From assembly GCA_937900965.1 (NCBI GenBank), contig CALCGJ010000031.1:17341-81340 (forward strand): a DNA stretch of 64,000 nt. Reading direction: 5' to 3'. How positions within the stretch are numbered: the first letter of the stretch is position 1; each line of letters begins with the position of its first letter. The DNA comes from an uncultured Bacteroidota bacterium. Its GTDB lineage: Bacteria > Bacteroidota > Bacteroidia > Bacteroidales > FEN-979. The position numbers were made by a program, and so were the translations under genes. The notes under the pieces are model-generated. The model did not search any database. It was not told the origin of the DNA and saw only the letters and a list, made by a program, of their open reading frames with translations. Positions 4,623 through 63,859 of the stretch are shown here, piece after piece.

Positions 4623-5381
4623 TTAGATTTGGGTCTTGGGTTTTGGGACTTGGGTCTTGGGACTTGGGACTTGGGACTTGGGACTTGGGACTTGGGGCTT
4701 CAACTTTCCGATGTCTTCCCAAACCGGGCTCGTATCGACAAATCCTTTGATTAGATGATCGGAAGCAAGCCGAATATAAAGATCAGTCAGCGAAAATTTA
4801 CCACTCTCCGTCATCCATGAGAAGATATCCGGATGCAGGATCTGTATCCCGCTGAAAGCAAGGCTCCTGATATCATCACCCTCCCTGCTGATCCGCTGTT
4901 CTCCTGTTTTCCGGTTCTCCCATCCGTACAGTGTATTCTTCTTATCAAAGAGGAAATACCGTGAAGTTTCTCGTTCCCTTACCGCCAGGGTGGCAAGTGG
5001 AGATTCATACCGGTGAAAACGCATCATCTTGTTGAGGTCAAGGTCGGAGAGGATATCCACATTCCGAACCACAAATGGTTCGACATCACGAAAGAACCAG
5101 GATGCTTTTTTCACGCCACCACCAGTCTCCAGCAGCTCATCCGACTCATCAGAGATTGTAATCGTCATTCCGAGATTATCATTTAGCCTGAGGAACTCCA
5201 GTATTTTCTCAGGAAAATGGTGCACATTGATAATCACATCGCGTATCCCATAACGCTTAACGTGTTCCAGTGCATGTTGCAGCAATGGTTTCCCATCAAC
5301 TACTACAAGTGCTTTAGGAATGGAATTGGTGATTGGCCGTAACCGTGTCCCCAATCCCGCTGCAAGTATCATCGCTTTCAT
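4623..5381 (-). CDS. Sugar-1-phosphate nucleotidyltransferase, MurU-like (MurNAc-1-P uridylyltransferase family); C-terminal ~24 aa are repeat-encoded
   Basis: The N-terminus MKAMILAAGLGTRLRPIT is the GxGTRL nucleotidyltransferase signature. The gene lies directly downstream of an APH-type (AmgK-like) kinase. The tail KPQVPSPKSQVPSPKTQVPKPKTQI is the translation of the heptamer array at 4629..4698. Confidence 0.75.
   Translation of the reverse strand: MKAMILAAGLGTRLRPITNSIPKALVVVDGKPLLQHALEHVKRYGIRDVIINVHHFPEKILEFLRLNDNLGMTITISDESDELLETGGGVKKASWFFRDVEPFVVRNVDILSDLDLNKMMRFHRYESPLATLAVRERETSRYFLFDKKNTLYGWENRKTGEQRISREGDDIRSLAFSGIQILHPDIFSWMTESGKFSLTDLYIRLASDHLIKGFVDTSPVWEDIGKLKPQVPSPKSQVPSPKTQVPKPKTQI
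4629..4698. repeat. Heptanucleotide tandem array (TTGGGAC/TTGGGTC) x10
   Basis: Read directly: ttgggtc ttgggtt ttgggac ttgggtc ttgggac x5 ttggggc. A degenerate period-7 continuation (gattgac gattgca ... tttacga tttagat) runs back to about 4594. Confidence 0.95.
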
Positions 5382-5495: not shown

Positions 5496-7037
5496 CTACA
5501 ATCGGGCAAGGTTTGTATGATTTGTGTTAACAATAATCTTATACCGTTTTATCAGGAACTCCTTCATCCTCTCTGCACAATAAACCGACCGGTGTTGTCC
5601 CCCTGTACACCCGAAGTTGACGAACAGATGTTGAAATCCACGCTCCAGATAATTTATTACGCTCTGATCAACAAGAGCTGTGGCGTTGTGAAGGAACAGG
5701 TCAACCTCAGCTTCATTCTTCAGGAAGTCTATTACGGGTTTATCCTTCCCTGTAAGTTGTTTGTACTCGTCATATCTTCCCGGATTAGGAAGGGCACGGC
5801 AGTCAAACACAAAACCCCCTCCGTTTTCTGTCGGATCTGCAGGGATGCCGTTTTTGTAGGAGAAACTCGTAATGGTTAAGGTAAGGGAACTGATGCCGGA
5901 TGCCGGATGCCGGATGCCGGGTTTTCCCCTCCCTTCATGGGGAGGGGTCAGAGGTGGGGTACCACCGGTTTCCAGTATCCGGGATCCAGGATCTGGAACC
6001 GAAGCGAAGCGGAGTTCGGCGGAGCCAATCAGCTGGTCCAGCAAGCGGAATAGCGTTGGAAGTTCCACACCGAACTCCTTTTTCTCCCACAGAGTTCGCA
6101 GATTCTTCAGGTTATTCAAGGCATATGGTATACTCTGGAGGAAATGACTCTTTTGTTCATAAAACCCACGATAACCGTAGGCTCCTAGCGCCTGGAGAAT
6201 ACGAATCAGGATAAAGCCAGGGAAATAGGTCATAAATTCCATTCTTTTCCCCGGGATATACACTTCCAGTTCATCCAGATAGAATCCAAGAAGATGATCC
6301 CTGACATGCTGAGGCAGGTCGGCTTTGGCATCATACAGCATAGATGCTATGTCATATTGCAGCGGTCCTTTTCTACCTCCCTGATAATCAATATAGTATG
6401 GGTCGTTATTAACCAGCATGATGTTCCTCGACTGAAAATCCCGGTACATAAAATAATCAGCATCAGCCTGAAGCAAGAAGGTCGAAAATGTAGAGAAGTC
6501 CTCCTCCAGGGCCTGTTCATCAAACGGAACATGAGCAAGTTTCAGGAAGTAATATTTGAAGTAGTTCAGATCCCACAGCATCGATTGACTGTCGAATGCA
6601 TGTCGCGGATAACATTTGGCGAAGTCGATCCTTTCCCCACCCCTGATCTGGAATATAGGGAGCCTCTTAAGTACTTGCTCATAAAGATTCAGTATGGCAG
6701 AAGGAAATCCGGATTCCACTTTCTTCTTTGCGACCAGTTCGGAGAATAGTGTCTGATCACCCAGATCCGATAATAAGTAGCAATTTTTCTGCAGATCCTC
6801 TGCTAAGATTTCAGGGACAGGCAGTATAAGGGATTCAAATGTACGGGTGAATGACAGAAAGGCTTCATTCTCTTTCCGGTCGTTGTTGTATACGCCAATT
6901 ACCGTTCCACGCGTTCCGCTAAGTCTGAAATAGAGTCTGTTAGACCCGGAATCCGGAAGCCTGACAATGCCGTCAGCCCTTTCGCCAAACGTTCTTTGAT
7001 ACAGCGCTTTAACCGGTTCTTCGTTGTTCATTTTCAT
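5496..7037 (-). CDS. Two-domain protein: AmgK-like aminoglycoside-phosphotransferase-fold sugar kinase fused to a RapZ C-terminal-like domain
   Basis: The N-terminal ~340 aa look like an APH-type kinase (…YLLSDLGD…, DFQSRNIML, IDYQG). The C-terminal ~130 aa match the RapZ C-terminal domain (LTITSFSYKNGIP, FDCRALPNPGRY, LTGKDKPV, GCTGGQHRSV). The linker is encoded by repeats at 5880..6010. Confidence 0.75.
   Translation of the reverse strand: MKMNNEEPVKALYQRTFGERADGIVRLPDSGSNRLYFRLSGTRGTVIGVYNNDRKENEAFLSFTRTFESLILPVPEILAEDLQKNCYLLSDLGDQTLFSELVAKKKVESGFPSAILNLYEQVLKRLPIFQIRGGERIDFAKCYPRHAFDSQSMLWDLNYFKYYFLKLAHVPFDEQALEEDFSTFSTFLLQADADYFMYRDFQSRNIMLVNNDPYYIDYQGGRKGPLQYDIASMLYDAKADLPQHVRDHLLGFYLDELEVYIPGKRMEFMTYFPGFILIRILQALGAYGYRGFYEQKSHFLQSIPYALNNLKNLRTLWEKKEFGVELPTLFRLLDQLIGSAELRFASVPDPGSRILETGGTPPLTPPHEGRGKPGIRHPASGISSLTLTITSFSYKNGIPADPTENGGGFVFDCRALPNPGRYDEYKQLTGKDKPVIDFLKNEAEVDLFLHNATALVDQSVINYLERGFQHLFVNFGCTGGQHRSVYCAERMKEFLIKRYKIIVNTNHTNLARL
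5892..5919. repeat. Heptanucleotide tandem array (GATGCCG) x4 followed by the hairpin CCCCTCCC-ttcat-GGGAGGGG (5926..5947)
   Basis: Read directly. It lies inside the inter-domain linker of ORF 5496..7037. A further period-7 stretch, atccggg atccagg atctgga, is at about 5976..5996. Confidence 0.9.
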
Positions 7038-11763: not shown

Positions 11764-14700
11764 TCACTCCTTTTTCTTTGTTTTTGATCTGCGAAACAAT
11801 TCTCCCCATTTGTAAAAATCACGCTGAAAAGAGATCCCGACACCTTGTGTGTAAGGGGCGTTATTATTGAGGAGGTCGATGGTATTGGTCCGGTTGAATG
11901 CCCGTATTCTCCATCTCCTGTTCTTGGTAAGGAGGTATTCAACATTGATATCACCTACGATAGTGCTGGCTTGAGCAGAAGTAGTATTCTTGTAAGATGA
12001 CATACCAAATGTTCCATCTATTAACAACCTGTCATCAAACAGTTGTGTTGAGACAGTCATGTCGATCTCCTGGCCTGCAGTTGAAGATCCTGGCTGATAA
12101 TTGACACCGATGTTCAGATTCTGAGACATCCCCGAGAGCCAACTGTTAATCTGGTTAGTTACAATCGAAAGTGATGCACCGCCTACATCAACTGCTCCAC
12201 CCGAGCCACCTGCGACCGGTTTAAACTGATTCATTACCAGAATGTATAAAACCTGCTGTGTCATCTCCGCAGTATTGCTTGTATCGATAGCATTATAGAC
12301 CATATTTCTCTCACTCTCCTGGGCATATGGTAAGGCTATTCCAAATGACATGATTGGGTTCATCAGCTTTCCGTTGAGGCGTATAATACACTCAACCGGA
12401 ATGCGGCCCTGAATAGTCGATGTCTCAGAACTTAGTCCCGACAGTGGAACTTTTGTCTTGTATATTGCAGATAACGATATATTTGCATCAGTAGGGTCAC
12501 CAGTCCATGAGATAGAACTTCCCTCTTTAATGGCGAAGGGCAACCGAATCAGGTTTTTCATCTGAAAAAGAAATGAGCCCTTGCTGATCGAGTAGCTTCC
12601 ATGAAGGCTGAAAGGGGTGGAAGGGTTCATCCCCATGGAGATGTTCCCGGATCCGTTTGCTTTGATATTTCCAAGTTGACCGGGGAATAATACCTCAACC
12701 TGGGCATCGGGCCTTACGGCAAGGCTAATGGCCAGGGTCAATCCCGTTGAAGAGGCTGGTCTGCTCAGCTTCGTTGCATTCTCAAGAGAATCTCCCCTGG
12801 GTTGCTTGAAAACAATGTAATCCACCTGTCCAACAGCCTGGGTCAGGTTAATCGGTATCGTTACATTGGTGTTCTGGCCAGTGCTGGCATTCGCAGTGAC
12901 AACAATGTAGTCGATAGGACCAACGATTTCAACCGTTCCGCTCGACCTTGCATTCCCGTAGAAGATACTATTCTGGGCATATGTGTTCCTGAAGGCTGAA
13001 AAGTCATCCATTCGGATATTCAGATTCAGGCTTAGATTGCGGAAATAGTTATGATTAAAAGACCCGTTCAGGTAGGCTTTATTTCCCAGGGAGTCGTATA
13101 GAACCATATTGTTAAAGGAAAATTTATCCGGCTCAATGGTGATGATATCGGCAACCGAATAGGGAACATTGAGGTAACTGATATTGAACTCGGTGCGCAT
13201 CAGTCTTAACTCACCCTTTAATGCAGGCTCCTGAAGGGTACCATCAATCCTGATCTCCCCAGATACAAGACCTGTCAGCCTGGACATAAAACCTGAAACA
13301 AACGGTTCAAGCATCTTGAGGTTCAGGTTCTTCAGCTTCAGGTCGAAATCAAAATGCGGATTTGGCGCTGCTGTGTAATAGCTTCCTGTAAGGGAAAACG
13401 GGATACTCTGGCCAATATTTCCGGTATATATTATTTCTGAGACCACATCAAGTTTATCTTCAGCCCTGTTGTAGTTCACCCGAAAAACGGCATCTCCGAG
13501 ATGCTGCCTGTTGAAACTGAAATTGTCAAGCTTCAGATCAGAATAGACTGACAACTCATTATAGACATCTGTGATTTTCAGATCTCCTGACAGGATCCCG
13601 TCGATGTCAATATTGGGATTTGAGAAAAAATAATCCAGTTGAGAGACATTTACCCCATTGAAGGTCAGATCAAGGGTATCCAGAAAATTGCGGGTAAGCC
13701 TCCCATTCAGTGATAACCACTGGTTGCCGCTCATAAAGGTAAGATCGTGAATTACGATCATGGAGGTATCCAGGATCACATAATTATCTTTCGAAATAGT
13801 CCATGGATTACCGGCCAGTTGTAAGTCAAGTTCATCCAGTTTAATTTTCACGCTCCCATCTTCCAGAAAAGTCAGGAATCCTTCAAAAAAGCTGTAGTCT
13901 TCTTCTGAAGCTGAGCTTACCTTGTAAAGGATACTGTCATGACGGGCGCTGGCAGTTAATAAGAGTGTGTCAAGTTGAATATAAACCGTATCTGTTGGTT
14001 TCGACTTATTCATGATCAGCCTGTCACAACCCGTCTGCACGGAGAGATCATCGCTGCGGGTTTCGGCATCAATGGACCAATTTTCCAGCTGCATTTCTCT
14101 GATATGCAGCAAAGGTGACCGACCCGTTAGTGTAAGTATCTTGTCAGCTTCATTATAATTGCCTTTCAGGTATGATTCCGGGGCGATTTCCAGGAATGGG
14201 AGAAAAATGGCTGTAACTTCAGCCGTATTCCTGAACGTTATCTGGTAGTTCAGCTCCTGTCCTGAATAATGGTATTTCATAGTTGAATCCTGTCGCATCT
14301 GAAAGCTGGCCAGGTAATTCCGGATGAAGGTAACTACTGATGGCACAAGTTTACTGAAGGCAAACTCACCGGTAAAATCAGCATCCAGCAGATCAGACCT
14401 CACTTCATAGGTTTTCTGTCCTGACGAGTCAGCGTTTGTCATGATAAGCAGGGAATCAATGAATGCCCTGTTTCTCCCTTCCCAGTATGAGATATTCCGC
14501 AGATCGATTGTCCCGACAATATTATCAATTGAATTTCCTTTGAAGTCGGCCTGCACTGAAGCTGAGAAGATCTCTACCGAGTCTCGTTCTAGTAGATGCA
14601 GGTTGAACAGCTGTGCATGGTCGACCCGTGAGTCGAATTTAAAAACTGCCAGGCTGTCGTTAAAATCGGCCATTCCGTGAAATGTGAGCTGCAAATCGGA

Positions 14701-16317
14701 ATCATCCACAGTTAAATCACCGAAAAATCTCTTCCGGATAAGTGAGCCATTGAGAGTTATGTTTTTGTAATTATACCTGTTTAGCATGGCTGAATCGACC
14801 TTCAATTGCATTAAAAGATCGGCTTCATTAAACGAAAGGCCCTTACCGTCAAGGTTGGCCCGTAAAGTGACCTTGCCTAACATTTCTGAATTTCCAATCA
14901 GTTTTCCTACGTCGAATGAGGTGATCCCCAGCTCACCTTGATATGCCAAAGGTCCCCTTTTTACAGGTTGTTTCAACTGCAGATTTGTTTTTGCGGATCC
15001 GATATCTGTCCGGATTTCCGCCTGGGCTATAAAATCATCAATAAAACCGGTAAAATCGCCCTTTACCCTTATTAGGCCTAAATTCCCGATCAATTCAGGA
15101 ATTTCCACACTCCCGGGATCTCCCGGAATCTTGAAAGCACTGATATCTTTGGCTGTTGTTGTAAAGTTTTTAATACTCATATCAACATAGGATGCGCTGA
15201 TATCGGGAAGTCCAACAATGTAAATATTACCATTAAAGATGGTGTTTTCTTCAAATGCCAGCTTTAAGTTATCTGCTCTGAGCTTAGCCACTGTCCCTGC
15301 TATATCACCATCGAACCTGATACGGTTACGCATTTCCTTTACTTCGGGAGCGAAAAATCCTATATCCGTCATATCAAACTCCGATGGCTGAATGTCGGCC
15401 TCAATCCTTACCTGTTTCAGAAAATCGGTAAACGCGATGAAGCCATTGTAACGGAATGCAAAATCAAGTGAAAGGTTTGAATTGTCGGTTGTCAGCTTCA
15501 GGTCATCCACTGTAATAAACTGATCGCTGACCTTACAATCACCCTGAAAATTATGCAGGTAGATTCCGCATTTTTCCCTGGCCGTGAGGTGATTGATCAT
15601 CGCATTGATCGTATCTCCTTCAATTCTTACGTTAGATATATCCAGATCAATATTCGTTACATCGATGTCGGTATAATCCATTCCTTGAGTTGTACCGGGG
15701 TTGGTTTCATCCTGGTAATGAAACCGGATGCCCTCGAGGATTATCCTTTTACATCTGATCGAAAGGGGTGCTGCAGGTGTTGTATCAGGTATTTTAGGGA
15801 TGGTGTCGGCCGAAGAGAAATGGTTAATAATAGCAACCAGGTTTAGAACTGAATCATTCCTGTGTTTCAGGAGCTGAAACTCCCCCTGGCTGATCAGAAT
15901 TTTCTGCACAGTGATGGTTCTTCCGGAAAGGCTGAACCAGATAGGTTTAATGCTAAGTTGGCGGGCAGAAAAGAGTGTAGTATCATGGTGGTCTTTCACC
16001 AGGATATCTTCGATAGTAAATCCATTGTGAAAGGAGAGGTCAAAGTTCCCGATGCGGAACGTAGCGCCTGTTTCCCGGGAGAGGTAATCAGCGGTCATCT
16101 GTATGGCAAGGCTCTGCACCCAGGTATCACGCAACACCAGATAAAGGGTGAAGACCAAAGCGATCAAGACCGTAACCAGATAGAGCCCTATTTTACCAAC
16201 TGTTTTTATTTTACTTTTGCCTTTTGGAACCTGATAAATAAATTCAATGCCACCCTTTATTCTCGGTATCGAAACTTCATGTGATGACACCTCCGCTTCA
16301 GTGGTTGAAGGAACCAT
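11764..16317 (-). CDS. tamB: Translocation/assembly module protein TamB (DUF490-type giant periplasm-spanning protein)
   Basis: About 1500 aa. There is a single N-terminal TM helix (IGLYLVTVLIALVFTLYLVL) and a repetitive beta-rich body. The C-terminus is …GDINVEYLLTKNRRWRIRAFNRTN…GVGISFQRDF. The start is uncertain: ATG 16317, GTG 16290 and TTG 16356 all overlap tsaD head to head. Confidence 0.8.
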   Translation of the reverse strand: MVPSTTEAEVSSHEVSIPRIKGGIEFIYQVPKGKSKIKTVGKIGLYLVTVLIALVFTLYLVLRDTWVQSLAIQMTADYLSRETGATFRIGNFDLSFHNGFTIEDILVKDHHDTTLFSARQLSIKPIWFSLSGRTITVQKILISQGEFQLLKHRNDSVLNLVAIINHFSSADTIPKIPDTTPAAPLSIRCKRIILEGIRFHYQDETNPGTTQGMDYTDIDVTNIDLDISNVRIEGDTINAMINHLTAREKCGIYLHNFQGDCKVSDQFITVDDLKLTTDNSNLSLDFAFRYNGFIAFTDFLKQVRIEADIQPSEFDMTDIGFFAPEVKEMRNRIRFDGDIAGTVAKLRADNLKLAFEENTIFNGNIYIVGLPDISASYVDMSIKNFTTTAKDISAFKIPGDPGSVEIPELIGNLGLIRVKGDFTGFIDDFIAQAEIRTDIGSAKTNLQLKQPVKRGPLAYQGELGITSFDVGKLIGNSEMLGKVTLRANLDGKGLSFNEADLLMQLKVDSAMLNRYNYKNITLNGSLIRKRFFGDLTVDDSDLQLTFHGMADFNDSLAVFKFDSRVDHAQLFNLHLLERDSVEIFSASVQADFKGNSIDNIVGTIDLRNISYWEGRNRAFIDSLLIMTNADSSGQKTYEVRSDLLDADFTGEFAFSKLVPSVVTFIRNYLASFQMRQDSTMKYHYSGQELNYQITFRNTAEVTAIFLPFLEIAPESYLKGNYNEADKILTLTGRSPLLHIREMQLENWSIDAETRSDDLSVQTGCDRLIMNKSKPTDTVYIQLDTLLLTASARHDSILYKVSSASEEDYSFFEGFLTFLEDGSVKIKLDELDLQLAGNPWTISKDNYVILDTSMIVIHDLTFMSGNQWLSLNGRLTRNFLDTLDLTFNGVNVSQLDYFFSNPNIDIDGILSGDLKITDVYNELSVYSDLKLDNFSFNRQHLGDAVFRVNYNRAEDKLDVVSEIIYTGNIGQSIPFSLTGSYYTAAPNPHFDFDLKLKNLNLKMLEPFVSGFMSRLTGLVSGEIRIDGTLQEPALKGELRLMRTEFNISYLNVPYSVADIITIEPDKFSFNNMVLYDSLGNKAYLNGSFNHNYFRNLSLNLNIRMDDFSAFRNTYAQNSIFYGNARSSGTVEIVGPIDYIVVTANASTGQNTNVTIPINLTQAVGQVDYIVFKQPRGDSLENATKLSRPASSTGLTLAISLAVRPDAQVEVLFPGQLGNIKANGSGNISMGMNPSTPFSLHGSYSISKGSFLFQMKNLIRLPFAIKEGSSISWTGDPTDANISLSAIYKTKVPLSGLSSETSTIQGRIPVECIIRLNGKLMNPIMSFGIALPYAQESERNMVYNAIDTSNTAEMTQQVLYILVMNQFKPVAGGSGGAVDVGGASLSIVTNQINSWLSGMSQNLNIGVNYQPGSSTAGQEIDMTVSTQLFDDRLLIDGTFGMSSYKNTTSAQASTIVGDINVEYLLTKNRRWRIRAFNRTNTIDLLNNNAPYTQGVGISFQRDFYKWGELFRRSKTKKKE
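16212..16219 (+). promoter_or_regulatory. Candidate Bacteroidota -7 box TACTTTTG for tsaD
   Basis: It matches TAnnTTTG and lies 28 nt upstream of the tsaD ATG (16247). Confidence 0.4.
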
Positions 16318-17302
16318 TGTACGGTCGAACGTTACTGCCAACCAGGAGATCCACAAGGAGTTCGGGGGTGTGGTCCCTGAGCTGGCATCCCGTGCTCATC
16401 AGCAAAATATAGTACCGGTGATTGAAGCCGCAATCCGGAGAGCAAATATACGTAAAAATCAACTTGCTGCGGTGGCCTTTACACAGGGCCCGGGGCTTCT
16501 TGGCTCGCTTCTCGTTGGATCATCATTTGCTAAAAGCTTTGCCCTCGCGATGGAGATTCCCCTGATCGAAGTTGACCATATGCAGGCGCACATCCTGGCG
16601 CATTTCCTGGAAGATCCGCAGAACCAGCGTCCTCTGCCTTCATTCCCGTTTGTCTGTCTGACAGTTTCCGGTGGCCATACCCAGATTGTATTGGTGCGTG
16701 ACTATTTTGATATGGAGGTGCTTGGTCAAACCATCGATGATGCTGCAGGAGAGGCTTTTGACAAATCAGCAAAGATCCTTGGACTCCCCTACCCCGGAGG
16801 TCCAATAATCGACAAGCTTGCTGCAGGAGGTGACCCCGTACGGTTTTCCTTCTCCCGCCCGAACATCCCGGCACTTGATTACAGCTTCAGCGGACTTAAA
16901 ACTTCAATCCTTTATTTTATCAGGGATGAGCTGAAAAAGGATCCTGCATTCATCGAGGAAAATAAAAGGGATCTCTGTGCATCGATCCAGGCAACAATTG
17001 TTGAGATATTGATGGGGAAGTTGAAGCTTGCAGTCGAAGAGATACGCGATACGCGATATGCGATCCCGGATCACGGATCGCGGATCGTTGATGTGGCAAT
17101 CGCCGGTGGCGTATCGGCAAACTCTGCCTTAAGGAAGGCACTGCTGGAGACCGCAGACAAGGAGGGCTGGAATGCCTTTATACCGCAGTTTGAGTACACA
17201 ACAGATAATGCAGCGATGATTGCTGTTGCAGGGTATTTCAAATTCCTGAAGGGCGATTTCACGAAGCAGTCTGCAATATCCTATGCCCGAAGCAGATGGT
17301 GA
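16247..17302 (+). CDS. tsaD: tRNA N6-adenosine threonylcarbamoyltransferase TsaD, with an in-frame repeat-derived insertion
   Basis: The N-terminus is MPPFILGIETSCDDT. Other family motifs are VDHMQAHI, LTVSGGHTQ, GEAFDK and AIAGGVSAN. The insertion IRDTRYAIPDHGSRI is encoded by the heptamers at 17041..17089. Confidence 0.92.
   Translation: MPPFILGIETSCDDTSASVVEGTIVRSNVTANQEIHKEFGGVVPELASRAHQQNIVPVIEAAIRRANIRKNQLAAVAFTQGPGLLGSLLVGSSFAKSFALAMEIPLIEVDHMQAHILAHFLEDPQNQRPLPSFPFVCLTVSGGHTQIVLVRDYFDMEVLGQTIDDAAGEAFDKSAKILGLPYPGGPIIDKLAAGGDPVRFSFSRPNIPALDYSFSGLKTSILYFIRDELKKDPAFIEENKRDLCASIQATIVEILMGKLKLAVEEIRDTRYAIPDHGSRIVDVAIAGGVSANSALRKALLETADKEGWNAFIPQFEYTTDNAAMIAVAGYFKFLKGDFTKQSAISYARSRW
17041..17089. 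repeat. Heptanucleotide tandem array (GATACGC GATACGC GATATGC GATCCCG GATCACG GATCGCG GATCGTT) inside tsaD
   Basis: Read directly. The GATCRCG unit is the same one found in the intergenic arrays at 25499..25526 and 25582..25616. Confidence 0.9.
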
Positions 17303-21329: not shown

Positions 21330-22550
21330 CTAATCCCTCTTTGCTTCAAGCATCTTCAGTCCGAATGCTTTGCCAAAGTCATGACATTGCTTGATTGTCT
21401 CTTCGTGTGGAGTAAACCGGATCATCAACCCATCGGTAAATACATTCAGCCGGAGAACCTTAAGTGCGGAGTCAATGATTTTAGCAGCTTCCCCGCTCCA
21501 TCCAAAAGATCCAAACGAGGCAGCGATTTTGTTCCGGTCCCTGATTGGGTTAATAAGGGCAAATACCTGGTATACAGGCAATAACACGTTCTGACTGAAG
21601 GTTGGGCTTCCCAGGATAATTCCGGATGCTTCAATAATTTTTTGCTCTATCACCGCTAATTCCATAGTTTCAATATCGCAGAGGTCTACATCAAACGAAC
21701 CAGCCATCCTGATCCCTGCAGCGATCTCTTTAGCAATCAAACCCGTATTTTTATACGCTGAAACATAGCCAATGAAAACCCTGTTGGGAAGTGGAAAAAC
21801 CATAGCCTCTCTGGCATACTGTTCAGAGAGATCCACATACTTTTGCCAATTCTTACGGAGGATAGGACCGTGTCCGGGGCACACTATGTCGATCTCAAGA
21901 GACCGTATCTTACTGATTGCCTGTACCATAAACCGACTGTATGGTTTCATGATCACATCGAAATAATAGCGGTAGGCATCATCAAAATCCCCAACCAGGT
22001 CATCAAACATCTCTTCCCTGGCATAGTGACAACCGAATGAATCACACGTAAACAGGATCTTATCTTCTTCAAGGTATGTATAGATGGAATCGGGCCAGTG
22101 AAGGTTCGGAGCCCCGATAAACCTGAGTTTCTTGTTTCCCAGGTCTAGCGTGTCACCATCCTTTACAATCAGATGAGGCACCTCCATTCCCAATTGATCT
22201 TTCAGGTATCGGATCGCATTTCCGCTTCCCACAACTTTCGCTGAAGGAGCTATCTCAAGCAGATCCTTTAATGTTCCGGAATGATCAGGTTCCGTGTGGT
22301 TCATCACGATGTAGCTGATCTCGGAAGGATCAGTCATTTCCCTCACTTTTGCCAGGTAAGTATCACGGAAAGTAGCTTTTGTGGTTTCAATAATACATTT
22401 CTTATCCGCCCGGATAAAATAGGAGTTATAGGTTGTTCCGAACTCTGTTGCCATCACTACGTCAAACGTGATCAGGTCAGGGTCAAGCACACCGATCCAG
22501 GAAACATCTTTGGTAACCTTTAAGATTTTATTGCCATTCATTGCCATCAT
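21330..22550 (-). CDS. FprA-family flavodiiron protein (metallo-beta-lactamase-like plus flavodoxin-like domains)
   Basis: It has the di-iron motif NHTEPDHSG and a C-terminal flavodoxin-like segment GIILGSPTF. The first codons (MMAMNG) lie within the 9-mer array. Confidence 0.85.
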   Translation of the reverse strand: MMAMNGNKILKVTKDVSWIGVLDPDLITFDVVMATEFGTTYNSYFIRADKKCIIETTKATFRDTYLAKVREMTDPSEISYIVMNHTEPDHSGTLKDLLEIAPSAKVVGSGNAIRYLKDQLGMEVPHLIVKDGDTLDLGNKKLRFIGAPNLHWPDSIYTYLEEDKILFTCDSFGCHYAREEMFDDLVGDFDDAYRYYFDVIMKPYSRFMVQAISKIRSLEIDIVCPGHGPILRKNWQKYVDLSEQYAREAMVFPLPNRVFIGYVSAYKNTGLIAKEIAAGIRMAGSFDVDLCDIETMELAVIEQKIIEASGIILGSPTFSQNVLLPVYQVFALINPIRDRNKIAASFGSFGWSGEAAKIIDSALKVLRLNVFTDGLMIRFTPHEETIKQCHDFGKAFGLKMLEAKRD

Positions 22551-22644
22551 TGTTCATCATTGTTCATCATTGCACATCATTGCCATCATTGCCATCATTG
22601 CCATCATTGCCATCATTGCCATCATTGCCATCATTGCACATCAT
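22528..22644. repeat. Tandem 9/10-nt array (TGCCATCAT x7 perfect, flanked by the 10-mers TGTTCATCAT and TGCACATCAT)
   Basis: Read directly. Together with (TCCCTACT)x3 at 22655..22678, it fills the whole parC-fprA spacer. Confidence 0.95.
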
Positions 22645-22677
22645 TCTCTCCACCTCCCTACTTCCCTACTTCCCCAC

Positions 22678-25452
22678 TTATAGTTCCAGTTCCAGCTGTT
22701 CGTCGCTGATGGTTTTGGGTTCAGCGTTCCGGGTTCCGCGTTTCGCGTTCGGCGTTTTGGGTTCAGCGTTCGGCGTTCCGCGTTTCGCGTTTCGCGTTTG
22801 GCGTTCGGCATTTGGTGTTTCGCGTTTGGCGTTAGGCGTTTCGGTTTCCGGATTGCCGGTTGATGGTTCTTTGGGCTTTTTCCCAACTTTTTTAACCTTC
22901 TCCTCGACCTTCGACCCTGTCACCTCGACCTTCGACCCTGTCACCTCGACCCTGGTCTCCTGTTCCAGCCAATTCACCTTCTTCACCGCGTGACCGGTGA
23001 GTCGTTTCCCTTTTGCTTTATAGCCTTTTAGCCCAATGAATTCGGAGATGTTGATCTCTTCCTCTGCTGCCCCTTTGCTCTTCTGTTTCATATCAAAGAG
23101 AATCTGCAAACGTGGATACAAATCGGCAGAGATAGAGACAAAATGGTCTGAGTCATCGAGGTAGGCAAGCTTTTTCTCTGTTATTTCCGGACTAAACCGT
23201 TTTATGTAATATAACTTCGTCTTTGTATCCTGATAGATCACAGTATAGATTTTCCGGGGATCAAATTTCTCAATCCTGAACATATCTTCATCAAAATGGG
23301 TGGAGAGATCAAAAGAGGTGAACCGGAAGTGGCCTGACCGGGTGAAGGTGATAATCCTGTCGGCTCCTGAAAAAGCTCCGAGAAGGGTACCCCTATCCTC
23401 GGCGTTCAGTCTCATCACAGTATCATCATACCAGATGTTGAGAGATCCCAGTGTGGAGACACCTTCCTGGCGAATCTCGATCTTCTTGATTGCATACTTT
23501 GTAAGAATATTCCCCATGGAACTTCTCCCTTTGATAGCCAGGTCGGCAAAATTAAAATCAAACGAGCTCTTTTTGATCCGGGGTTTCGGCTTCAGGTCGA
23601 CCTTAACGACCTCTGCTTCGCCATTAGGGTTTGCGGAGAAGTAAAGCACTTTTGAGCCCAGGGTCCCCTTGGTTAAGTTATATTCCTTGTCGCGCGTTAC
23701 ACCTGTCACGGCAAAGCGCTTGATCATAATCTTCCCATTCTTACCATCTCTGTAAATCAGATTGTAGATCGTCCGGATGTCATTCTTCATGAAGACCTGA
23801 ATATGGATTACATCGTGACCGATAAAAACCTTGTCGGCTACTTTTGTCACCATAAAAGTGCCGTCACTACGGATGACGATAATGTCGTCAATATCTGAAC
23901 AATCGCATATAAATTCATCACGACGGAGGGAGGTTCCGGCAAATCCCAATTCCCGGTTGATATACAGTTTCACGTTTGCCGCAGCTACCTTTACCGCTTC
24001 AATAGATTCAAAATTGCGCAATTCAGTATGCCTGTCGCGATTTTTCCCGTATTTCTTCCTGATCTGCCGAAAATGCTCGATGGCAAAATCGGTCAGGTGG
24101 GCCAGGTGATTGCTCACCTCTTCTGTCTCCTGCCTGATGCCGTTGATCACATCATCGGCTTTGTTGGAATTAAATTTTGAGATTCGTTCAATGGGGATCT
24201 TCCGGAGTTTTTTGATATCCTCTTCGCTCAGCGGCCTGATGAAATCCTTTTCAAACGGCTTCATCCCGCTCTTGATAGCCTTATCTATATCCTCGTCCGT
24301 CTTGCATTTCTTAATCCCTTCGTAGACCTCATTTTCAATGAAGATTTTTTCGATGGATGCATAATGCAACTGCTCATTCAGCTCCTCCAGCCGTATCTCC
24401 AATTCTCTTTTCAGTAAGTAGACCGTGTGTGCTGTAGATATCCTCAGGATTTCCTTAACACCGACAAATCTTGGCTTTCCATTCTCGATAACACAGCAAT
24501 TGGCGGAAATTGGCACCTCACACTGTGTGAATGCATAGAGAGCATCCATTGTAGTATCCGGAGAGACACCAGGTGTCAGGTGGATCAGAATCTCTACATC
24601 CCTGGCGGTGTTATCATCGATCTTCCGAATCTTGATCTTTCCTTTGTCATTGGCATTGAGGATCGAGTCAATAACAGACTCTGTAGTTGTGCCATATGGG
24701 ATTTCATTGATCACCAATGTCTTTTTATCAACCTGGCTAATCCTGGCACGCAACCGGACCTTCCCGCCTCGCAACCCATCGTTGTACTTTGAGACATCAG
24801 CCAGTCCGCCTGTCGGAAAATCGGGGAAGAGTTCAAAATCCTTCCCCTGCAACACTTTGATGGAGGCATCAATCAGTTCGTTGAAATTATGCGGCAGAAT
24901 CCTGGAAGCAAGTCCCACAGCGATCCCCTCAACTCCCATTGCCAGCAACAGAGGAAACTTAACCGGCAGGGTGACCGGTTCTTTGTTCCGTCCGTCGTAG
25001 GAGGTTTTCCATACCGTAGTCTTTGGGTTGAAAACCACGTCGAGCGAAAATTTAGAGGGGCGTGCTTCAATATACCTTGGTGCTGCAGCACTGTCACCTG
25101 TATGGATATTTCCCCAGTTGCCCTGAGTATCAACCAGGAGATCCTTTTGCCCAAGCTGAACAAGTGCATCCCCAATAGAGGCATCACCATGAGGATGGTA
25201 TTTCATGGTATGTCCGATGATGTTGGCGACCTTGTTATACCGTCCGTCATCCAGCTCTTTCATAGCATGAAGCAAGCGACGCTGGACAGGTTTCAGTCCG
25301 TCAAGAATTTCCGGAACAGCCCGTTCCAGGATAACATAGGAGGCATAATCCAGGAACCAGTTCTGGTACATAACATCCAAATGGATTGCCTCTTCAAGCT
25401 TTCCTGATTCAAGTTCCGGGTGTTCGCCGTTAAGATTTTGTTCGTCGTTCAA
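22678..25452 (-). CDS. parC: DNA topoisomerase IV subunit A (ParC) with a ~95-aa repeat-encoded C-terminal extension
   Basis: The sequence MYQNWFLDYASYVILERAVPEILDGLKPVQRR…HPHGDASI is the Bacteroidota ParC type. I prefer the TTG start at 25452 (MNDEQNLNGEHPE…). The GTG at 25587 would read through hairpin and heptamer repeats. Confidence 0.85.
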   Translation of the reverse strand: MNDEQNLNGEHPELESGKLEEAIHLDVMYQNWFLDYASYVILERAVPEILDGLKPVQRRLLHAMKELDDGRYNKVANIIGHTMKYHPHGDASIGDALVQLGQKDLLVDTQGNWGNIHTGDSAAAPRYIEARPSKFSLDVVFNPKTTVWKTSYDGRNKEPVTLPVKFPLLLAMGVEGIAVGLASRILPHNFNELIDASIKVLQGKDFELFPDFPTGGLADVSKYNDGLRGGKVRLRARISQVDKKTLVINEIPYGTTTESVIDSILNANDKGKIKIRKIDDNTARDVEILIHLTPGVSPDTTMDALYAFTQCEVPISANCCVIENGKPRFVGVKEILRISTAHTVYLLKRELEIRLEELNEQLHYASIEKIFIENEVYEGIKKCKTDEDIDKAIKSGMKPFEKDFIRPLSEEDIKKLRKIPIERISKFNSNKADDVINGIRQETEEVSNHLAHLTDFAIEHFRQIRKKYGKNRDRHTELRNFESIEAVKVAAANVKLYINRELGFAGTSLRRDEFICDCSDIDDIIVIRSDGTFMVTKVADKVFIGHDVIHIQVFMKNDIRTIYNLIYRDGKNGKIMIKRFAVTGVTRDKEYNLTKGTLGSKVLYFSANPNGEAEVVKVDLKPKPRIKKSSFDFNFADLAIKGRSSMGNILTKYAIKKIEIRQEGVSTLGSLNIWYDDTVMRLNAEDRGTLLGAFSGADRIITFTRSGHFRFTSFDLSTHFDEDMFRIEKFDPRKIYTVIYQDTKTKLYYIKRFSPEITEKKLAYLDDSDHFVSISADLYPRLQILFDMKQKSKGAAEEEINISEFIGLKGYKAKGKRLTGHAVKKVNWLEQETRVEVTGSKVEVTGSKVEEKVKKVGKKPKEPSTGNPETETPNAKRETPNAERQTRNAKRGTPNAEPKTPNAKRGTRNAEPKTISDEQLELEL
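22711..22857. repeat. Heptanucleotide tandem array, consensus CGTTYSG, x21 (147 nt)
   Basis: Read directly: ggttttg ggttcag cgttccg ggttccg cgtttcg cgttcgg … cgtttcg gtttccg gattgcc. On the minus strand it is translated as a 7-aa periodic peptide. Confidence 0.95.
22903..22951. repeat. 21-nt (3 x 7) tandem repeat CTCGACC-TTCGACC-CTGTCAC x2.3
   Basis: Read directly. It encodes VEVTGSK VEVTGSK in the ParC tail. Confidence 0.9.
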
Positions 25453-25467
25453 AAGATTTCGGCTTAG

Positions 25468-25487
25468 AGCCGCAATAAATTGCGGCT
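25468..25487. repeat. R3 hairpin AGCCGCAATAAATTGCGGCT (second copy)
   Basis: It is identical to 10400..10419 and lies in the parC 5' leader. Confidence 0.9.
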
Positions 25488-25498
25488 GTACATTCGTA

Positions 25499-25526
25499 GA
25501 TCGCGGATCATGGATCGCACATCGCA
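25499..25526. repeat. Heptanucleotide array GATCGCG GATCATG GATCGCA CATCGCA
   Basis: Read directly. Confidence 0.85.
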
Positions 25527-25529
25527 CTA

Positions 25530-25537
25530 CAAAATTA
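25530..25537 (-). promoter_or_regulatory. Candidate -7 box TAATTTTG (minus strand) for parC
   Basis: The plus strand reads caaaatta, which matches TAnnTTTG on the minus strand. It lies about 77 nt upstream of the TTG at 25452 and downstream of the GTG at 25587, which argues against the long ORF. Confidence 0.35.
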
Positions 25538-25581
25538 CGATTTCCAAAGAAAGCAGGCAGGGTTGTTGATAAAAAGTTGTT

Positions 25582-25616
25582 TATCACGGATCACGGATCG
25601 CGGATCGCGGATCAAA
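25582..25616. repeat. Heptanucleotide array TATCACG GATCACG GATCGCG GATCGCG GATCAAA
   Basis: Read directly. It uses the same unit as the tsaD insertion. Confidence 0.9.
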
Positions 25617-25629
25617 GCATAATTTTCCC

Positions 25630-25637
25630 TATTTTTG
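25630..25637 (+). promoter_or_regulatory. Candidate -7 box TATTTTTG for tRNA-Arg
   Basis: It matches TAnnTTTG and lies 14 nt upstream of the tRNA 5' end. Confidence 0.45.
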
Positions 25638-25650
25638 CATCCGCAATCAG

Positions 25651-25723
25651 GGTCCAGTAGCTCAGGGGATAGAGCAACAGCCTTCTAAGCTGTGGGTCGT
25701 AGGTTCGATTCCTACCTGGATCA
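25651..25723 (+). tRNA. tRNA-Arg (anticodon UCU)
   Basis: I folded the cloverleaf by hand. The acceptor stem is ggtccag/ctggatc, the D arm is gctc-aggggata-gagc, the anticodon arm is acagc-cTTCTaa-gctgt, the variable loop is gggtc, and the T arm is gtagg-ttcgatt-cctac. The discriminator is A and no CCA is encoded. Confidence 0.9.
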
Positions 25724-25724
25724 C

Positions 25725-34120: not shown

Positions 34121-34187
34121 AGGTGACAAGGTAACAAGGTGAAAAGGTGACAAGGTACAAATTCACGTTATTCACGTTATTCACGAT
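34121..34187. repeat. Tandem 8-mer (AGGTGACA-type x5) followed by 9-mer (ATTCACGTT x3)
   Basis: Read directly: aggtgaca aggtaaca aggtgaaa aggtgaca aggtacaa | attcacgtt attcacgtt attcacgat. It fills the spacer between the stop at 34118 and the ATG at 34200. Confidence 0.9.
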
Positions 34188-34199
34188 TACTACTGACGC

Positions 34200-35513
34200 A
34201 TGACCAAAAAACCAGCGTTATCGTTCTGGCAAATCTGGAACATGAGTTTCGGTTTCCTTGGGATCCAGTTTGGTTGGGGGCTTCAGATGGCAAATATGAG
34301 CGCCATCTACGAATACCTGGGAGCTGAACCTGATCAAATTCCATTACTCTGGCTGGCTGCGCCTTTAACCGGGTTGATCGTGCAGCCTATAATCGGAAAC
34401 ATGAGTGACCGCACCTGGAACCGCATGGGTCGCCGTCGCCCCTATTTTCTTGTCGGGGCTCTTCTCTCTTCTGCAGCGCTCATTTTCATGCCCAACTCTT
34501 CGGCGTTATGGATGGCCGCCGGATTACTCTGGGTACTGGATGCCTCAATCAACATTTCGATGGAACCATTTCGCGCTTTTGTAGCCGATATGTTACCTGA
34601 AAAACAACGGGCAAGGGGATTTGCTATGCAGAGTATCTTTATTGGGTTGGGAGCTATAATTGCATCAGCTCTTCCCTGGATACTTACGAACCTGTTCGAC
34701 GTGCAAGGCGGGAGTAGTGAAGGTTCAGTCATACCCCTATCCGTAAAACTTTCTTTTTACGTAGGAGCTGCTGCTTTCTTCGGAGCAGTCCTCTGGACTA
34801 TCATCCGTACCAAAGAGTACCCCCCTGAGGATATGGAAGCATTCAGAGCAAAAAATACGGAAAGGCGCAGCATCGGCCAGTTTTTTACCGAGATATTTCA
34901 GGATATTCTTCACATGCCTGCGGCAATGAAAAGACTGGCCTGGGTTCAGATATTTTCCTGGCTCGGACTTTTTTGTATGTGGCTCTATTTTCCTGTTGCT
35001 GTTGCACGGAATGTGTTTGGTGCTCCCTCAGAGACTTCTGAGATCTACCAGCAAGGAATCGAATGGGCCGGTCTCTGTTTTGCCATGTATTCTCTCGTTT
35101 GCTTTGGATTCGCTTTCCTGCTACCCCTAATCGCAACGCGGATCGGGATGGCGTGGACCCATATCATCAGTCTGGCCTGTGGCGCTGCAGGGCTTATATC
35201 GGTTGCTGTCATCCACGACCCCTGGCTTCTTATGCTCTCCATGACTGGAGTTGGCATTGCCTGGGCAAGTATCCTCTCCATGCCATATGCCATCCTTTCA
35301 GGATCTTTACCTCCGGAAAAAACAGGTGTTTACATGGGGATATTCAACTTTTTCATTGTTCTTCCGGAGATCTTTGCCTCACTGGTATTCGGATGGGTGA
35401 TGCTGAACATCCTTGACAATAACCGTATGGCCGCCGTGATTGCCGGAGGAGTCTGCATGCTGATCGCCGCAGGGTTTATGTTGCGGGTCAGGGACGAAGG
35501 AAATAGCGCATAG
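34200..35513 (+). CDS. MFS sugar transporter, SLC45/GPH-like (probable maltose/malto-oligosaccharide:H+ symporter)
   Basis: It has 12-TM composition and the signature [21 protein letters not shown]. It lies in an alpha-glucan locus. Confidence 0.8.
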
Positions 35514-35578
35514 CGCAGAGCACAGAGCACAGATTAGTTTTGTTTAATCCTGAGCCCTGTGCCCTGAGCCCTGCGCAA
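35503..35578. repeat. Two heptamer arrays forming an imperfect inverted pair (ATAGCGC ATAGCGC AGAGCAC AGAGCAC … TGAGCCC TGTGCCC TGAGCCC TGCGCAA)
   Basis: Read directly. It starts inside the last codons of the MFS gene (stop at 35511..35513). A related word, GCTCAGGGCACAGG, recurs at about 60624..60637. Confidence 0.85.
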
Positions 35579-44615: not shown

Positions 44616-44626
44616 TTCTTATTGAA

Positions 44627-44715
44627 ACACAGATTACACAGAAAACACAGATTAACACAGATAATGAAATCCGTGATCATCTGTGTTGCCGAAGGCATCT
44701 GTGTCATCCGTGTTC
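44627..44715. repeat. Four direct ACACAGAWW 9/10-mers followed by inverted copies (ATCTGTGT x2, CCGTGAT/CCGTGTT)
   Basis: Read directly: acacagatt acacagaaa acacagatta acacagataa tgaaatccgtgatcatctgtgttgccgaaggcatctgtgtcatccgtgttc. It could fold as a long imperfect stem-loop. Confidence 0.85.
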
Positions 44716-60546: not shown

Positions 60547-60579
60547 GGTTGAGGGTCAAAGGTCAAGGGTCAAGGTAGA
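60545..60579. repeat. Heptanucleotide array AGGGTTG AGGGTCA AAGGTCA AGGGTCA AGGTAGA
   Basis: Read directly. It starts within the MFP stop codon. The same unit occurs at 63797..63831. Confidence 0.9.
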
Positions 60580-60662: not shown

Positions 60663-60697
60663 GAATTCGTAAATCGTAAATCGAAATTTGAAATATG
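60663..60697 (+). repeat. Heptanucleotide leader array GAATTCG TAAATCG TAAATCG AAATTTG AAATATG ending in the permease start codon
   Basis: Read directly. The related word ATTCGTAAATCGAAATG directly precedes the AddA-like start (minus strand, 10311..10330). Confidence 0.85.
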
Positions 60698-63600: not shown

Positions 63601-63859
63601 TTTCAGGCCTATCCTGATGACCTCTTTCGCTTTCATCCTGGGTGTGGTACCATTGGTTATTGCAGGTGGAGCCGGTGCTGCCAGCAGGCATGCACTCGGA
63701 ACCTCAGTGTTTGGCGGAATGCTGTTGGCCACTATCTGCGGTGTCCTTGTGGTACCTGCTCTCTATGTGGTATTTCAGCGACTTGAGAATTGGATAAAGG
63801 GTAAGGGTCAAGGGTCGAGGGTCGAGGGTCAAGAAAAAAATGGCAATTCATGGCAATAA
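60695..63859 (+). CDS. Efflux RND transporter permease (HAE1/AcrB family) with a ~20-aa repeat-encoded C-terminal tail
   Basis: The N-terminus is FIQRPILSFVIAILITLVG. It is 12-TM and about 1035 aa of AcrB-type sequence (…VVDDAIVVLE…, …GLVAKNAILIIEYA…). The tail KGKGQGSRVEGQEKNGNSWQ is encoded by the heptamers. Confidence 0.92.
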   Translation: MLQQFIQRPILSFVIAILITLVGVLSLMVLPVAQYPDVVPPTVQVTAYYPGASAEVVQKTVAVPLEEQINGVENMMYMTSQCANDGSCNITVYFEVGTDPDMATVNTQNRAQRAFSVLPAAVTQGGVIVMKRNPSILMLYALTSTDTSYNFEFLSNYAQINIVNTMKRIEGVGDVSLLGGDDYAMRIWLNPDRMAGLSITTDDVASAIMDQNLEAAAGAIGKNPAIPGQELAYIIRAEGRLQSIEEFNNIIIKTKIDGSIVRMEDIARVELGLKTYDVRTRFNQKPSPFIAVYQSPGSNATQIRADCDAMMMSLASQFPPGLEYEIGLDTVEFVDASVHDVLKTLLEAFILVFLVVFIFLQDWRATLIPAVTVPVSLIGALAAFSLFGFSINMLTLFALVLAIGIVVDDAIVVLEAVQEKIDEHGMSPLEATRETMKEIAPAIFTITLVLSAVFIPVSFLGGTTGQMYKQFALTLTSSIVISGLLALTLSPAMCVLLLKPKPERKGLIGKFFDGFDRGFNYTTNKYIAIVNNFLHHISRPLIFLGIVTILVVVVMKLLPTGFLPEEDQGYFFVNVISPKGVSLQMTDQVMHSIEKILEETPGVQSYSSVPGYSILDGTVSTTSGAVFVKLLPWDQRTKDSLQVESIIARLQTKLNQIPNGICMAFNAPAISGLGTTGGLELQLEDKIGAGLDKLAEVTTNFAVAAMQNKTLSNVFTGFRVDIPQYFLTVNKDKAKTMGVPVSDIYGALQAQFGSLYINDYNQFGKSYRVIIQADAVYRSNPEDVNLIYVRSSRGDMVPLGTLVSLEPIEGPDVVRRFNLFSSSSFTIAPAPGYSSGQAIEAVAEIAKTTLPFGFGYEYSGLTRQELIAGNQAPFVFALCFVFVYLLLAAKYESWFLPIPILLAMPFGILGAFGLQWISGLQNNIYAQIGLIMLIGLVAKNAILIIEYARQKHEEGMDLIKAAEVAARLRFRPILMTSFAFILGVVPLVIAGGAGAASRHALGTSVFGGMLLATICGVLVVPALYVVFQRLENWIKGKGQGSRVEGQEKNGNSWQ
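63797..63838. repeat. Heptanucleotide array AAGGGTA AGGGTCA AGGGTCG AGGGTCG AGGGTCA AGAAAAA, followed by ~10-nt repeats (ATGGCAATTC-type, 63839..63880)
   Basis: Read directly. Confidence 0.9.

Follow-up and report, generated by a model that had tools for sequence, protein, structure and literature searches.

Microsatellites with a unit length indivisible by three are generally seen as harmful in coding sequence, except in phase-variable genes. In heterocyst-forming cyanobacteria, arrays of short, tandemly repeated repetitive elements (STRRs) reportedly occur inside the essential RNase P RNA gene, as Vioque is said to have described in 1997. In repeat-rich prokaryotes, heptanucleotides are the commonest class of long simple sequence repeats (LSSRs), polymerase slippage has been proposed to explain them, and units of multiple-of-three length are the likeliest to be found in coding regions, according to the account of the survey of Mrazek, Guo and Shah (2007) given in PMC4679880. 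Most heptamer arrays lie between genes and a minority within them (PMC4692102). Other heptamer systems include the G-rich GGGAATC / GGGGA(T/C)T repeats of Xanthomonas and Nostoc (PMC4692102) and the TAACTGA repeats found in Beggiatoaceae, Cyanobacteria and five Bacteroidetes (PMC4679880), and proposals for the GGGAATC-type and TAACTGA systems include a role in regulation or in G-quadruplex formation (PMC4692102, PMC4679880). The present analysis concerns a window of 64,000 nucleotides from an uncultured Bacteroidota bacterium (assembly GCA_937900965.1, contig CALCGJ010000031.1, positions 17,341 to 81,340), in which a heptamer array lies inside tsaD, the gene of a tRNA-modifying enzyme. This array is one case of lineage-wide non-triplet repeats tolerated in frame in housekeeping proteins, and it is probably a fast-evolving heptamer microsatellite of the LSSR/STRR type, born by slippage, tolerated in a poorly ordered TsaD loop and held in frame by selection.

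The array occupies positions 17041-17089 within the open reading frame (ORF) 16247-17302 of the forward strand, where seven heptamers follow one another head to tail, and a degenerate eighth unit, GATGTGG at 17090-17096, coincides with the native Asp-Val codons. Two sub-arrays, both read on the forward strand, can be distinguished. Sub-array A (17041..17061) is made of GATACGC, GATACGC and GATATGC and encodes (E)IRDTRYA, while sub-array B (17062..17089), made of GATCCCG, GATCACG, GATCGCG and GATCGTT, encodes IPDHGSRIV. The array corresponds to residues 265-281 of 351, at about 75% of the gene length, the translation running ...KLKLAVEE, then IRDTRYAIPDHGSRI, then VDVAIAGGVSAN. Tandem Repeats Finder reports two period-7 arrays in tsaD (17041-17064 and 17062-17087), and 33 of 42 positions of the array match at a lag of seven, the maximum being 26 in 200 dinucleotide-preserving shuffles of the whole window. 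The repeat is thus real and no chance pattern; an earlier sequence-only reading of this DNA had described these seven 7-nt units inside tsaD. With a unit inside the 5-11 nt range, repeated head to tail beyond chance, the array is a heptanucleotide LSSR or microsatellite, albeit a degenerate one, since the seven units comprise six different sequences and no more than two adjacent units are identical. The predicted RNA fold of 17025-17105 was not exceptional (z = -0.68), for which reason a role of the array in RNA structure was dropped.

The gene that hosts the array is intact and encodes the 351-residue TsaD, the threonylcarbamoyltransferase subunit for N6-threonylcarbamoyladenosine (t6A) at position 37 of tRNA. 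NCBIfam TIGR03723 matches residues 5-333 over profile positions 1-313 of 314 with 383.3 bits (cutoff 296.1), Pfam PF00814 matches with 297.8 bits, and the nearest solved structures are those of the TsaD enzymes from E. coli, Salmonella and Thermotoga. In alignment A1, the metal-binding residues H111, H115 and D320 are invariant, as is the segment AIAGGV-AN (the GGVSAN adenosine motif). An equivalog score over the full length, the ASKHA fold, the His-His-Asp metal site and the GGVSAN motif identify the product as TsaD on sequence and model grounds, and t6A transferase activity together with TsaB and TsaE is predicted. Outside the insert, the ratio of non-synonymous to synonymous substitution rates (dN/dS) of this tsaD against eleven relatives is 0.03-0.08, with dS above 1, which indicates that the gene is under strong purifying selection. 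The location of the array in an intact, selected tsaD is therefore borne out by the profile scores, the invariant ligands and the substitution rates.

The genome is derived from a metagenome and repeats can be mis-assembled, which raises the question of an assembly artefact, or else of a decaying tsaD pseudogene backed by a second copy. Both are effectively excluded. In 10 conspecific contigs, which come from at least eight samples and were assembled independently by the ENA and Logan pipelines (consensus contigs, retrieved by exact protein identity), the tsaD DNA is identical, array included, and the flanks are at least 99.96% identical. The ORF is unbroken and holds all catalytic residues, its dN/dS is that of a constrained gene, the gene order TamB-tsaD-DUF6962 is conserved, and no assembly gave two tsaD loci among the 80 best GTDB hits.

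Public calls of this exact tsaD (P0036, P0121) begin at an internal GTG (333 residues) or an internal ATG (250 residues) and are without the N-terminal GIETSCDD motif, the affected region being 16247-16553. This is likely due to the long TamB ORF called on the opposite strand (11764-16356), since it extends over the true start at 16247. A collection of 15 billion proteins does not contain the full 351-residue TsaD. Insertions of the kind described here can, in addition, throw off length filters for orthologues and the trimming of alignments.

When the protein was aligned with E. coli TsaD (4ydu) by HMMER, gaps of 9 + 3 = 12 residues fell exactly at the array. The spacing between DLCAS and AIAGGV, used as a length ruler, is 48 residues here versus 36 in all 39 of the more distant GTDB Bacteroidales loci that have the motif, and it is also 36 in 39 metagenome loci. 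Both the gap and the spacing in about 80 Bacteroidales TsaD define a net insertion of 12 codons (36 nt) comprising I266-G277 (17042..17077, forward strand), so that the earlier estimate of some 12 residues holds, and the alignment of orthologues confirms the insertion together with its boundaries. The array's 3' units coincide with S-R-I-V-D-V, which stands where standard TsaD has T-G-I-x-x-V. Because these units overlap native-equivalent codons, a stretch of 7 x 7 = 49 nt, which is no multiple of three, is nonetheless accommodated in frame.

An AlphaFold2 model built on alignment A1 (mean predicted local distance difference test score, pLDDT, of 78; predicted template modelling score, pTM, of 0.80; template modelling score, TM, of 0.75-0.80 to 3zet, 4ydu and 6n9a) has a helix at 235-268 that extends into the first residues of the insert and a strand at 282-287 that leads to the GGVSAN nucleotide motif. 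The loop between them, 269-281, has a mean pLDDT of 52 for residues 271-280 and falls below 50 at 275-277. The question whether the insertion lies in a surface loop can be answered positively as far as a low-confidence loop after a helix is concerned; the ASKHA topology would place this loop on the face away from the active site, and it probably lies clear of the partner and tRNA surfaces as well. The published tRNA-contact elements of TsaD all lie elsewhere in the sequence, namely in the alpha1-alpha2 hairpin, the FSFSGLK motif/helix alpha7 and the hDDs loop (PMC13276492).

To gather relatives, GTDB species representatives and JGI metagenomes were scanned and individual homologues looked up, the clade being defined as the uncultured Bacteroidales with a TsaD at least 74% identical to that of the window. 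The JGI metagenome scan gave no contig of the same species, its best match being 83% identical. Every TsaD within the clade has a tandem array at the same loop (L001-L009, L082, L084, L086, L171, L173, L174, L175), with units and lengths that vary between +5 and +31 residues, the segment being thus conserved among relatives neither in length nor in sequence. The units found at this site include GAATTAC, GATCCCG, CATCCAG, GATGCCG, AAATCCC, CAGTCCT and the 8-mer CACCACTG. In the closest relative, L171 (84% identity), GATACGC-type units are followed by GATCCCG (+17 residues). L001 combines three GAATTAC with seven GATCCCG/A (+28), L002 has four CATCCAG (+6), L003 has runs of GATACGG, GATGCCG and AAATCCC (+31), L004 and L009 have six GATCCCG (+24), L005 and L006 have five CAGTCCT plus CACCACTG and CACTGGT (+29), L007 has three GATACGA and then six CATCCAG (+16), L008 has five copies of the 8-mer CACCACTG (+17), and L086 has 8.6 copies of GGATACC / GGATGCC (+26). 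The form in L082 and L084 is short (+5) and still heptamer-periodic. GATCCCG arrays recur at the site in L001, L004, L009, L173 and L175, and an IRDxxY type of unit at the 5' end of the insert is common to most clade relatives.

Outside the clade, TsaD proteins of 68-73% identity have a non-repetitive extension of +7 to +11 residues at the same loop, and more distant loci have none. The clade-wide arrays taken together with this non-repetitive extension therefore point to an old, indel-tolerant loop. The comparison of sequences indicates that heptamer arrays at the TsaD loop belong to one clade, in which the insertion is continually remodelled. The sequence-only reading had regarded the array as an intergenic-type repeat that invaded a coding region and was kept in frame: the in-frame heptamer insertion stands, and a single invasion does not, as the whole clade is occupied. 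An intein, a miniature inverted-repeat transposable element or another mobile-element insertion was considered and dropped, the insert being purely tandem, without inverted repeats or target duplication, and varying continuously in length among relatives. In the wider Bacteroidales (about 70% identity; P0057, P0026, P0063, L089), other low-complexity inserts occupy the same TsaD loop, for example DPGVDPRAGPRADPRADPRV, with a period of 4 residues (12 nt), and the loop thus attracts other periods too.

The insert, or at least its IRDxxY start, could be conceived as an adaptation of TsaD with a function in this clade, either as an extended helix or as a new surface for contacts, the repeats having provided only its origin. 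Such a proposal draws on the recurrence of I-R-D-x-x-Y in the window, L171, L003, L007, L173, L084 and others despite dS above 1, on the modelled helix that continues to residue 268, inside the insert, and on the presence of an insert of at least +5 residues in all members of the clade. It is nevertheless improbable, considering that the length ranges from +5 to +31 residues and the distal part is without sequence conservation, that the loop is modelled with low confidence, that the known tRNA-contact elements of TsaD are located elsewhere (PMC13276492) and that unrelated proteins are decorated by the same repeat process.

A change of array length was observed between two close relatives, L086 and L175, whose TsaD proteins are 92% identical and whose upstream tsaD DNA is 96% identical. 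In this single pair the arrays differ by exactly 21 nt, that is, by three units or seven codons, a whole-unit change such as slippage leaves behind. The aligned part of the arrays is only 78% identical, with 11 of 49 positions mismatched versus 31 of 774 flanking positions (Fisher P = 1e-5), and therefore arrays evolve faster than the gene that surrounds them. Length variants of the window array were found neither among the 10 same-species contigs nor among members of its protein cluster, a sampled population that is nearly clonal and gives low power. The degeneracy of the window array, with its six sequences in seven units, implies that slippage there should be rare.

These observations bear on whether tsaD could be a contingency locus, in which the gain or loss of one or two units would reversibly frameshift the gene and switch t6A modification in subpopulations. 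The unit length is no multiple of three, so that slippage by a single unit shifts the frame, and some relatives have 4-6 nearly perfect in-gene units. The warning that a change of one or two units would frameshift an essential gene is thus arithmetically correct; however, the array here is degenerate, with no long pure tract, it is identical in the 10 assemblies from at least eight samples, and the one step observed, of 21 nt, is in frame. Every clade tsaD locus has an intact reading frame, and the sole broken copy in the protein cluster (P0122/P0123) breaks near residues 225-256, away from the array. In addition, the array sits at 75% of the gene, whereas the repeats of typical phase-variable genes are near the N-terminus (PMC3315296), and tsaD is a housekeeping tRNA-modification gene with dN/dS of about 0.05 rather than a surface, restriction-modification or other accessory gene with repeats near its 5' end. 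A phase-variable t6A switch is on these grounds very unlikely, and no evidence of phase variation was found in the contigs compared.

The tsaD array does not stand alone. In tsaD-centred loci, from which array densities were sampled, period-7 arrays amount to 17.0 per 100 kb in the clade (247 kb) versus 1.16 in other Bacteroidales (1.6 Mb), an excess of about 15-fold, and period-8 arrays to 5.3 versus 0.31 per 100 kb in the same two sets. This lineage-specific excess is a further feature of heptanucleotide LSSRs. Within the window, eight strongly self-matching regions were found for period 7 and at most one for each other period from 4 to 12, and perfect dimers of the tsaD units occur in clade loci only, none being present in 1.77 Mb of other loci. 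The best explanation is that the clade, which consists of uncultured Bacteroidales of anoxic lake and marine water, carries 7- and 8-nt arrays in excess throughout its genomes, most of them intergenic.

At least five proteins of the window, TsaD included, contain such arrays in their coding regions. On the reverse strand, ten copies of TTGGGAC (in forward-strand letters; 4629..4700) encode the C-terminal tail, QVPSPKSQVPSPKTQVPKPKTQI up to the stop codon, of an NTP_transferase protein (ORF 4623-5381), whose orthologue in L171 has 231 residues versus 252 here. Also on the reverse strand, ORF 5496-7037 holds two heptamer arrays (5892..5993) in the linker that joins its APH domain to its PapZ_C domain, namely four GATGCCG (5892-5920) and, on the coding strand, GATCCTG/GATCCCG-type units (5971-5993); the orthologous linker of the syntenic relative L171 has different arrays at the same place and is 18 residues shorter overall. 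About 19 heptamers (NRAACGC) and a 21-mer repeat form the C-terminal tail of ParC (22714..22951, reverse strand; ORF 22678-25587), the peptide of the approximately 19 units reading TPNAKRETPNAERQTRNAKRG..., and the ParC tail of L171 has units of other sequence and arrays of other length at the same place. On the forward strand, five copies of AAGGGTC (63797..63833) encode the C-terminal tail of an AcrB-family pump (ORF 60695-63859), the ACR_tran domain of which ends at residue 1028.

The ParC tail belongs to about 420 nt of unbroken tandem repeats (22530-22951) that run across the 3' end of parC and the adjoining spacer. In order of position these comprise 12 copies of the 9-mer ATTGCCATC (22530-22645), three copies of the 8-mer TCCCTACT (22655-22679), the parC stop, the approximately 19 heptamers (22714-22850) and 2.4 copies of a perfect 21-mer (22902-22951), the heptamers and the 21-mer being translated as ParC tail. 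This tail closes, behind its repeats, with the non-repetitive ISDEQLELEL. Further intergenic arrays of 7-, 8- and 9-nt units occur at 34121-34185, 35503-35573, 60552-60575, 60667-60687 and 44625-44662, between convergent or co-directional genes and with several units side by side, as in 35503-35573, where ATAGCGC, AGCACAG and CCTGAGC are packed within 70 nt.

The 3' boundary of tsaD is itself a recurrent site. A purine-rich heptamer array (GGACGTG, GGGACGA or GGAAGAG) starts no more than 8 nt from the tsaD stop in 8 of 16 clade loci (L002:11039, L004:11091, L005:11109, L006:7938, L007:7533, L084:7036 with 18 units, L171:11082 and L173:1549), and it has been absorbed as a C-terminal TsaD tail (GRRTRDEG, RKMRDEKPKM) in L007 and probably in L001. 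The recurrence of this unit family at one and the same gene boundary suggests either that it has a function at the 3' ends of genes or that these are a hotspot.

The units are partly shared between loci. The spacer between the divergent parC and tRNA-Arg genes (25499-25724) consists largely of repeats, with GATC-containing units that create Dam-type sites 7 bp apart. On the forward strand it contains an intergenic or 5'-leader array upstream of parC (GATCGCG, GATCATG, GATCGCA, CATCGCA; 25499..25526) and a second intergenic array of two (G)ATCACG and two GATCGCG (25583..25614), which lies 37 nt upstream of the tRNA-Arg(TCT) gene (25651-25724). The claim that the GATCRCG unit of tsaD also forms intergenic arrays near parC is right in that these arrays are real and that an exact string of 21 nt, CGGATCACGGATCGCGGATCG, is common to tsaD 17067-17087 and intergenic 25587-25607, 8.5 kb apart; the word itself is not over-represented (14 occurrences in the window versus 11.4 expected), so that over-representation was rejected and the tandem arrangement alone is non-random. 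The region upstream of parC, where the window has its tRNA-Arg gene, may be an integration hotspot. L171 and L172 encode the same TsaD protein (P0003) and share their gene order up to parC, just upstream of which they diverge (L172, 19433-20635), one having a phage-type integrase (PF00589) and the other MscL.

Sharing extends across species. In different species, tsaD and the APH/PapZ_C linker have GATACGC/GATACGG and GATGCCG in common, the GATACGC-type unit of sub-array A being found in the linker of L171, and the 8-mer CACCACTG of the L008 and L006 tsaD also appears in L007 and L006 in an intergenic spacer unrelated to tsaD. The tsaD units match other arrays in 10 cases versus 2.4 expected under a composition-preserving null (P about 0.001), and a clade-wide unit vocabulary therefore exists. 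No significant excess of matches within genomes was obtained under a genome-permutation null (10 versus 6.1, P = 0.12), and genome-specific homogenisation of units was dropped on this result. A short array at L005:762-779, with 2.6 copies of TGGTCAT, is a rotation of TTGGTCA, which is presumably one of the cyanobacterial STRR units; among about 100 arrays, this may well be chance.

Such a vocabulary could mean that the tsaD array was seeded, or is renewed, by active or recombinational spread of a shared heptamer family, through ectopic gene conversion or templated addition, with the tsaD loop as one landing site. The identity of 21 nt across 8.5 kb, the reappearance of CACCACTG in unrelated spacers, the units common to tsaD and the APH/PapZ_C linker and the excess of matches over the composition null all speak for it, and dispersed single-unit arrays are the hallmark of the STRR, TAACTGA and GGGAATC systems. 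Spread of this kind remains unlikely, if by no means negligible, given that matches are not significantly commoner within than between genomes, that the sample is small (5-64 kb per genome) and that the arrays show no association with an enzyme or mobile element; a unit-specific propensity to slip, or a filter for stop-free, benign units, could instead account for the shared vocabulary. A bolder version, which we hold to be more doubtful still, is that some sequence-directed process, for instance ectopic conversion or templated addition, spreads the heptamer/octamer vocabulary between unlinked loci and repeatedly writes new, translated segments into permissive sites of essential proteins. If true, such a process would act as a natural engine by which non-triplet repeats give rise, de novo, to linkers, loops and tails.

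The explanation by local slippage can be formulated as follows. A heptanucleotide microsatellite would have grown through replication slippage in an insertion-tolerant loop of TsaD, between the long helix ending in ...KLKLAVEE and the strand DVAIAGGV; protein termini and loops are known to tolerate indels of simple sequence repeats (PMC3315296). In the clade, arrays lie mostly between genes, often beginning right at stop codons, and those falling in disordered parts of proteins (loops, interdomain linkers or C-terminal tails) are read in all three frames of the unit, the product being a hydrophilic peptide with a period of seven residues that is likely to be functionally neutral. Selection on the essential enzyme would remove lengths that are not a multiple of 3, would permit only units that are stop-free in all three frames and would probably favour degenerate arrays, which are less prone to slip. 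Within those limits, unit sequence and length would drift fast.

Some observations weigh against this account. Local slippage alone leaves the recurrence of units at unlinked loci and in different species unexplained (the 10 matches against 2.4 expected). The IRDxxY start of the insert is kept across species with saturated synonymous sites, and this part may be constrained rather than neutral. Moreover, some in-gene arrays are fairly pure, L086 having four perfect GATGCCG and L006 having 5.7 units at 96%, and they fit poorly with strong selection for degeneracy.

The in-frame tolerance of non-triplet repeats spans TsaD, ParC, the AcrB pump, the nucleotidyltransferase and the APH/PapZ_C fusion, and the same sites are occupied across species with saturated synonymous sites while the repeat content turns over. 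The clade may thus be seen as a natural system in which to study the birth of disordered protein segments from repeats read in three frames, the question of which loops in a universally conserved enzyme have room for 5-31 additional residues, and what drives the preference for 7-nt units and the recurrence of the same units at unlinked loci.

As to the described systems, the contingency loci of Haemophilus and Neisseria also have a non-triplet tandem repeat within coding sequence, but here the array is degenerate, late in the gene, in a housekeeping function and without length polymorphism in 10 assemblies. The resemblance to cyanobacterial STRRs, whose arrays inside RNase P RNA are the nearest precedent for an essential host gene, lies in dispersed arrays with a small unit vocabulary, tolerated in a permissive peripheral element of an essential gene and varying in unit number and type between strains. 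It is a resemblance of behaviour only and not a membership: the phylum and the unit sequences are others (GATACGC and GATCNCG are not known as STRR units), and the host gene is protein-coding, which restricts lengths to multiples of 3 and units to those stop-free in three frames. With the GGGAATC and TAACTGA systems, the clade shares genome-wide heptamer arrays near start or stop codons, its own often lying within 8 nt of the tsaD stop; those systems have one dominant unit, while here there are many units, none of them G-quadruplex-prone in tsaD, and several arrays are translated. As judged from the literature found to link heptanucleotide repeats to Bacteroidetes, namely that on TAACTGA in five cultured species, heptamer repeats of the LSSR/STRR-like kind appear to be new for this lineage. 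The closest likeness is to heptanucleotide LSSRs, with which the arrays share head-to-tail units of 7 nt (here also some of 8 nt), a lineage-specific excess, a mostly intergenic location and slippage as the proposed origin. They differ from them in that uncultured Bacteroidales are not among the described lineages, in that non-triplet arrays stand in frame within a number of housekeeping proteins, one of them an essential enzyme, and in that the same site is held across a whole clade while the units that fill it turn over.

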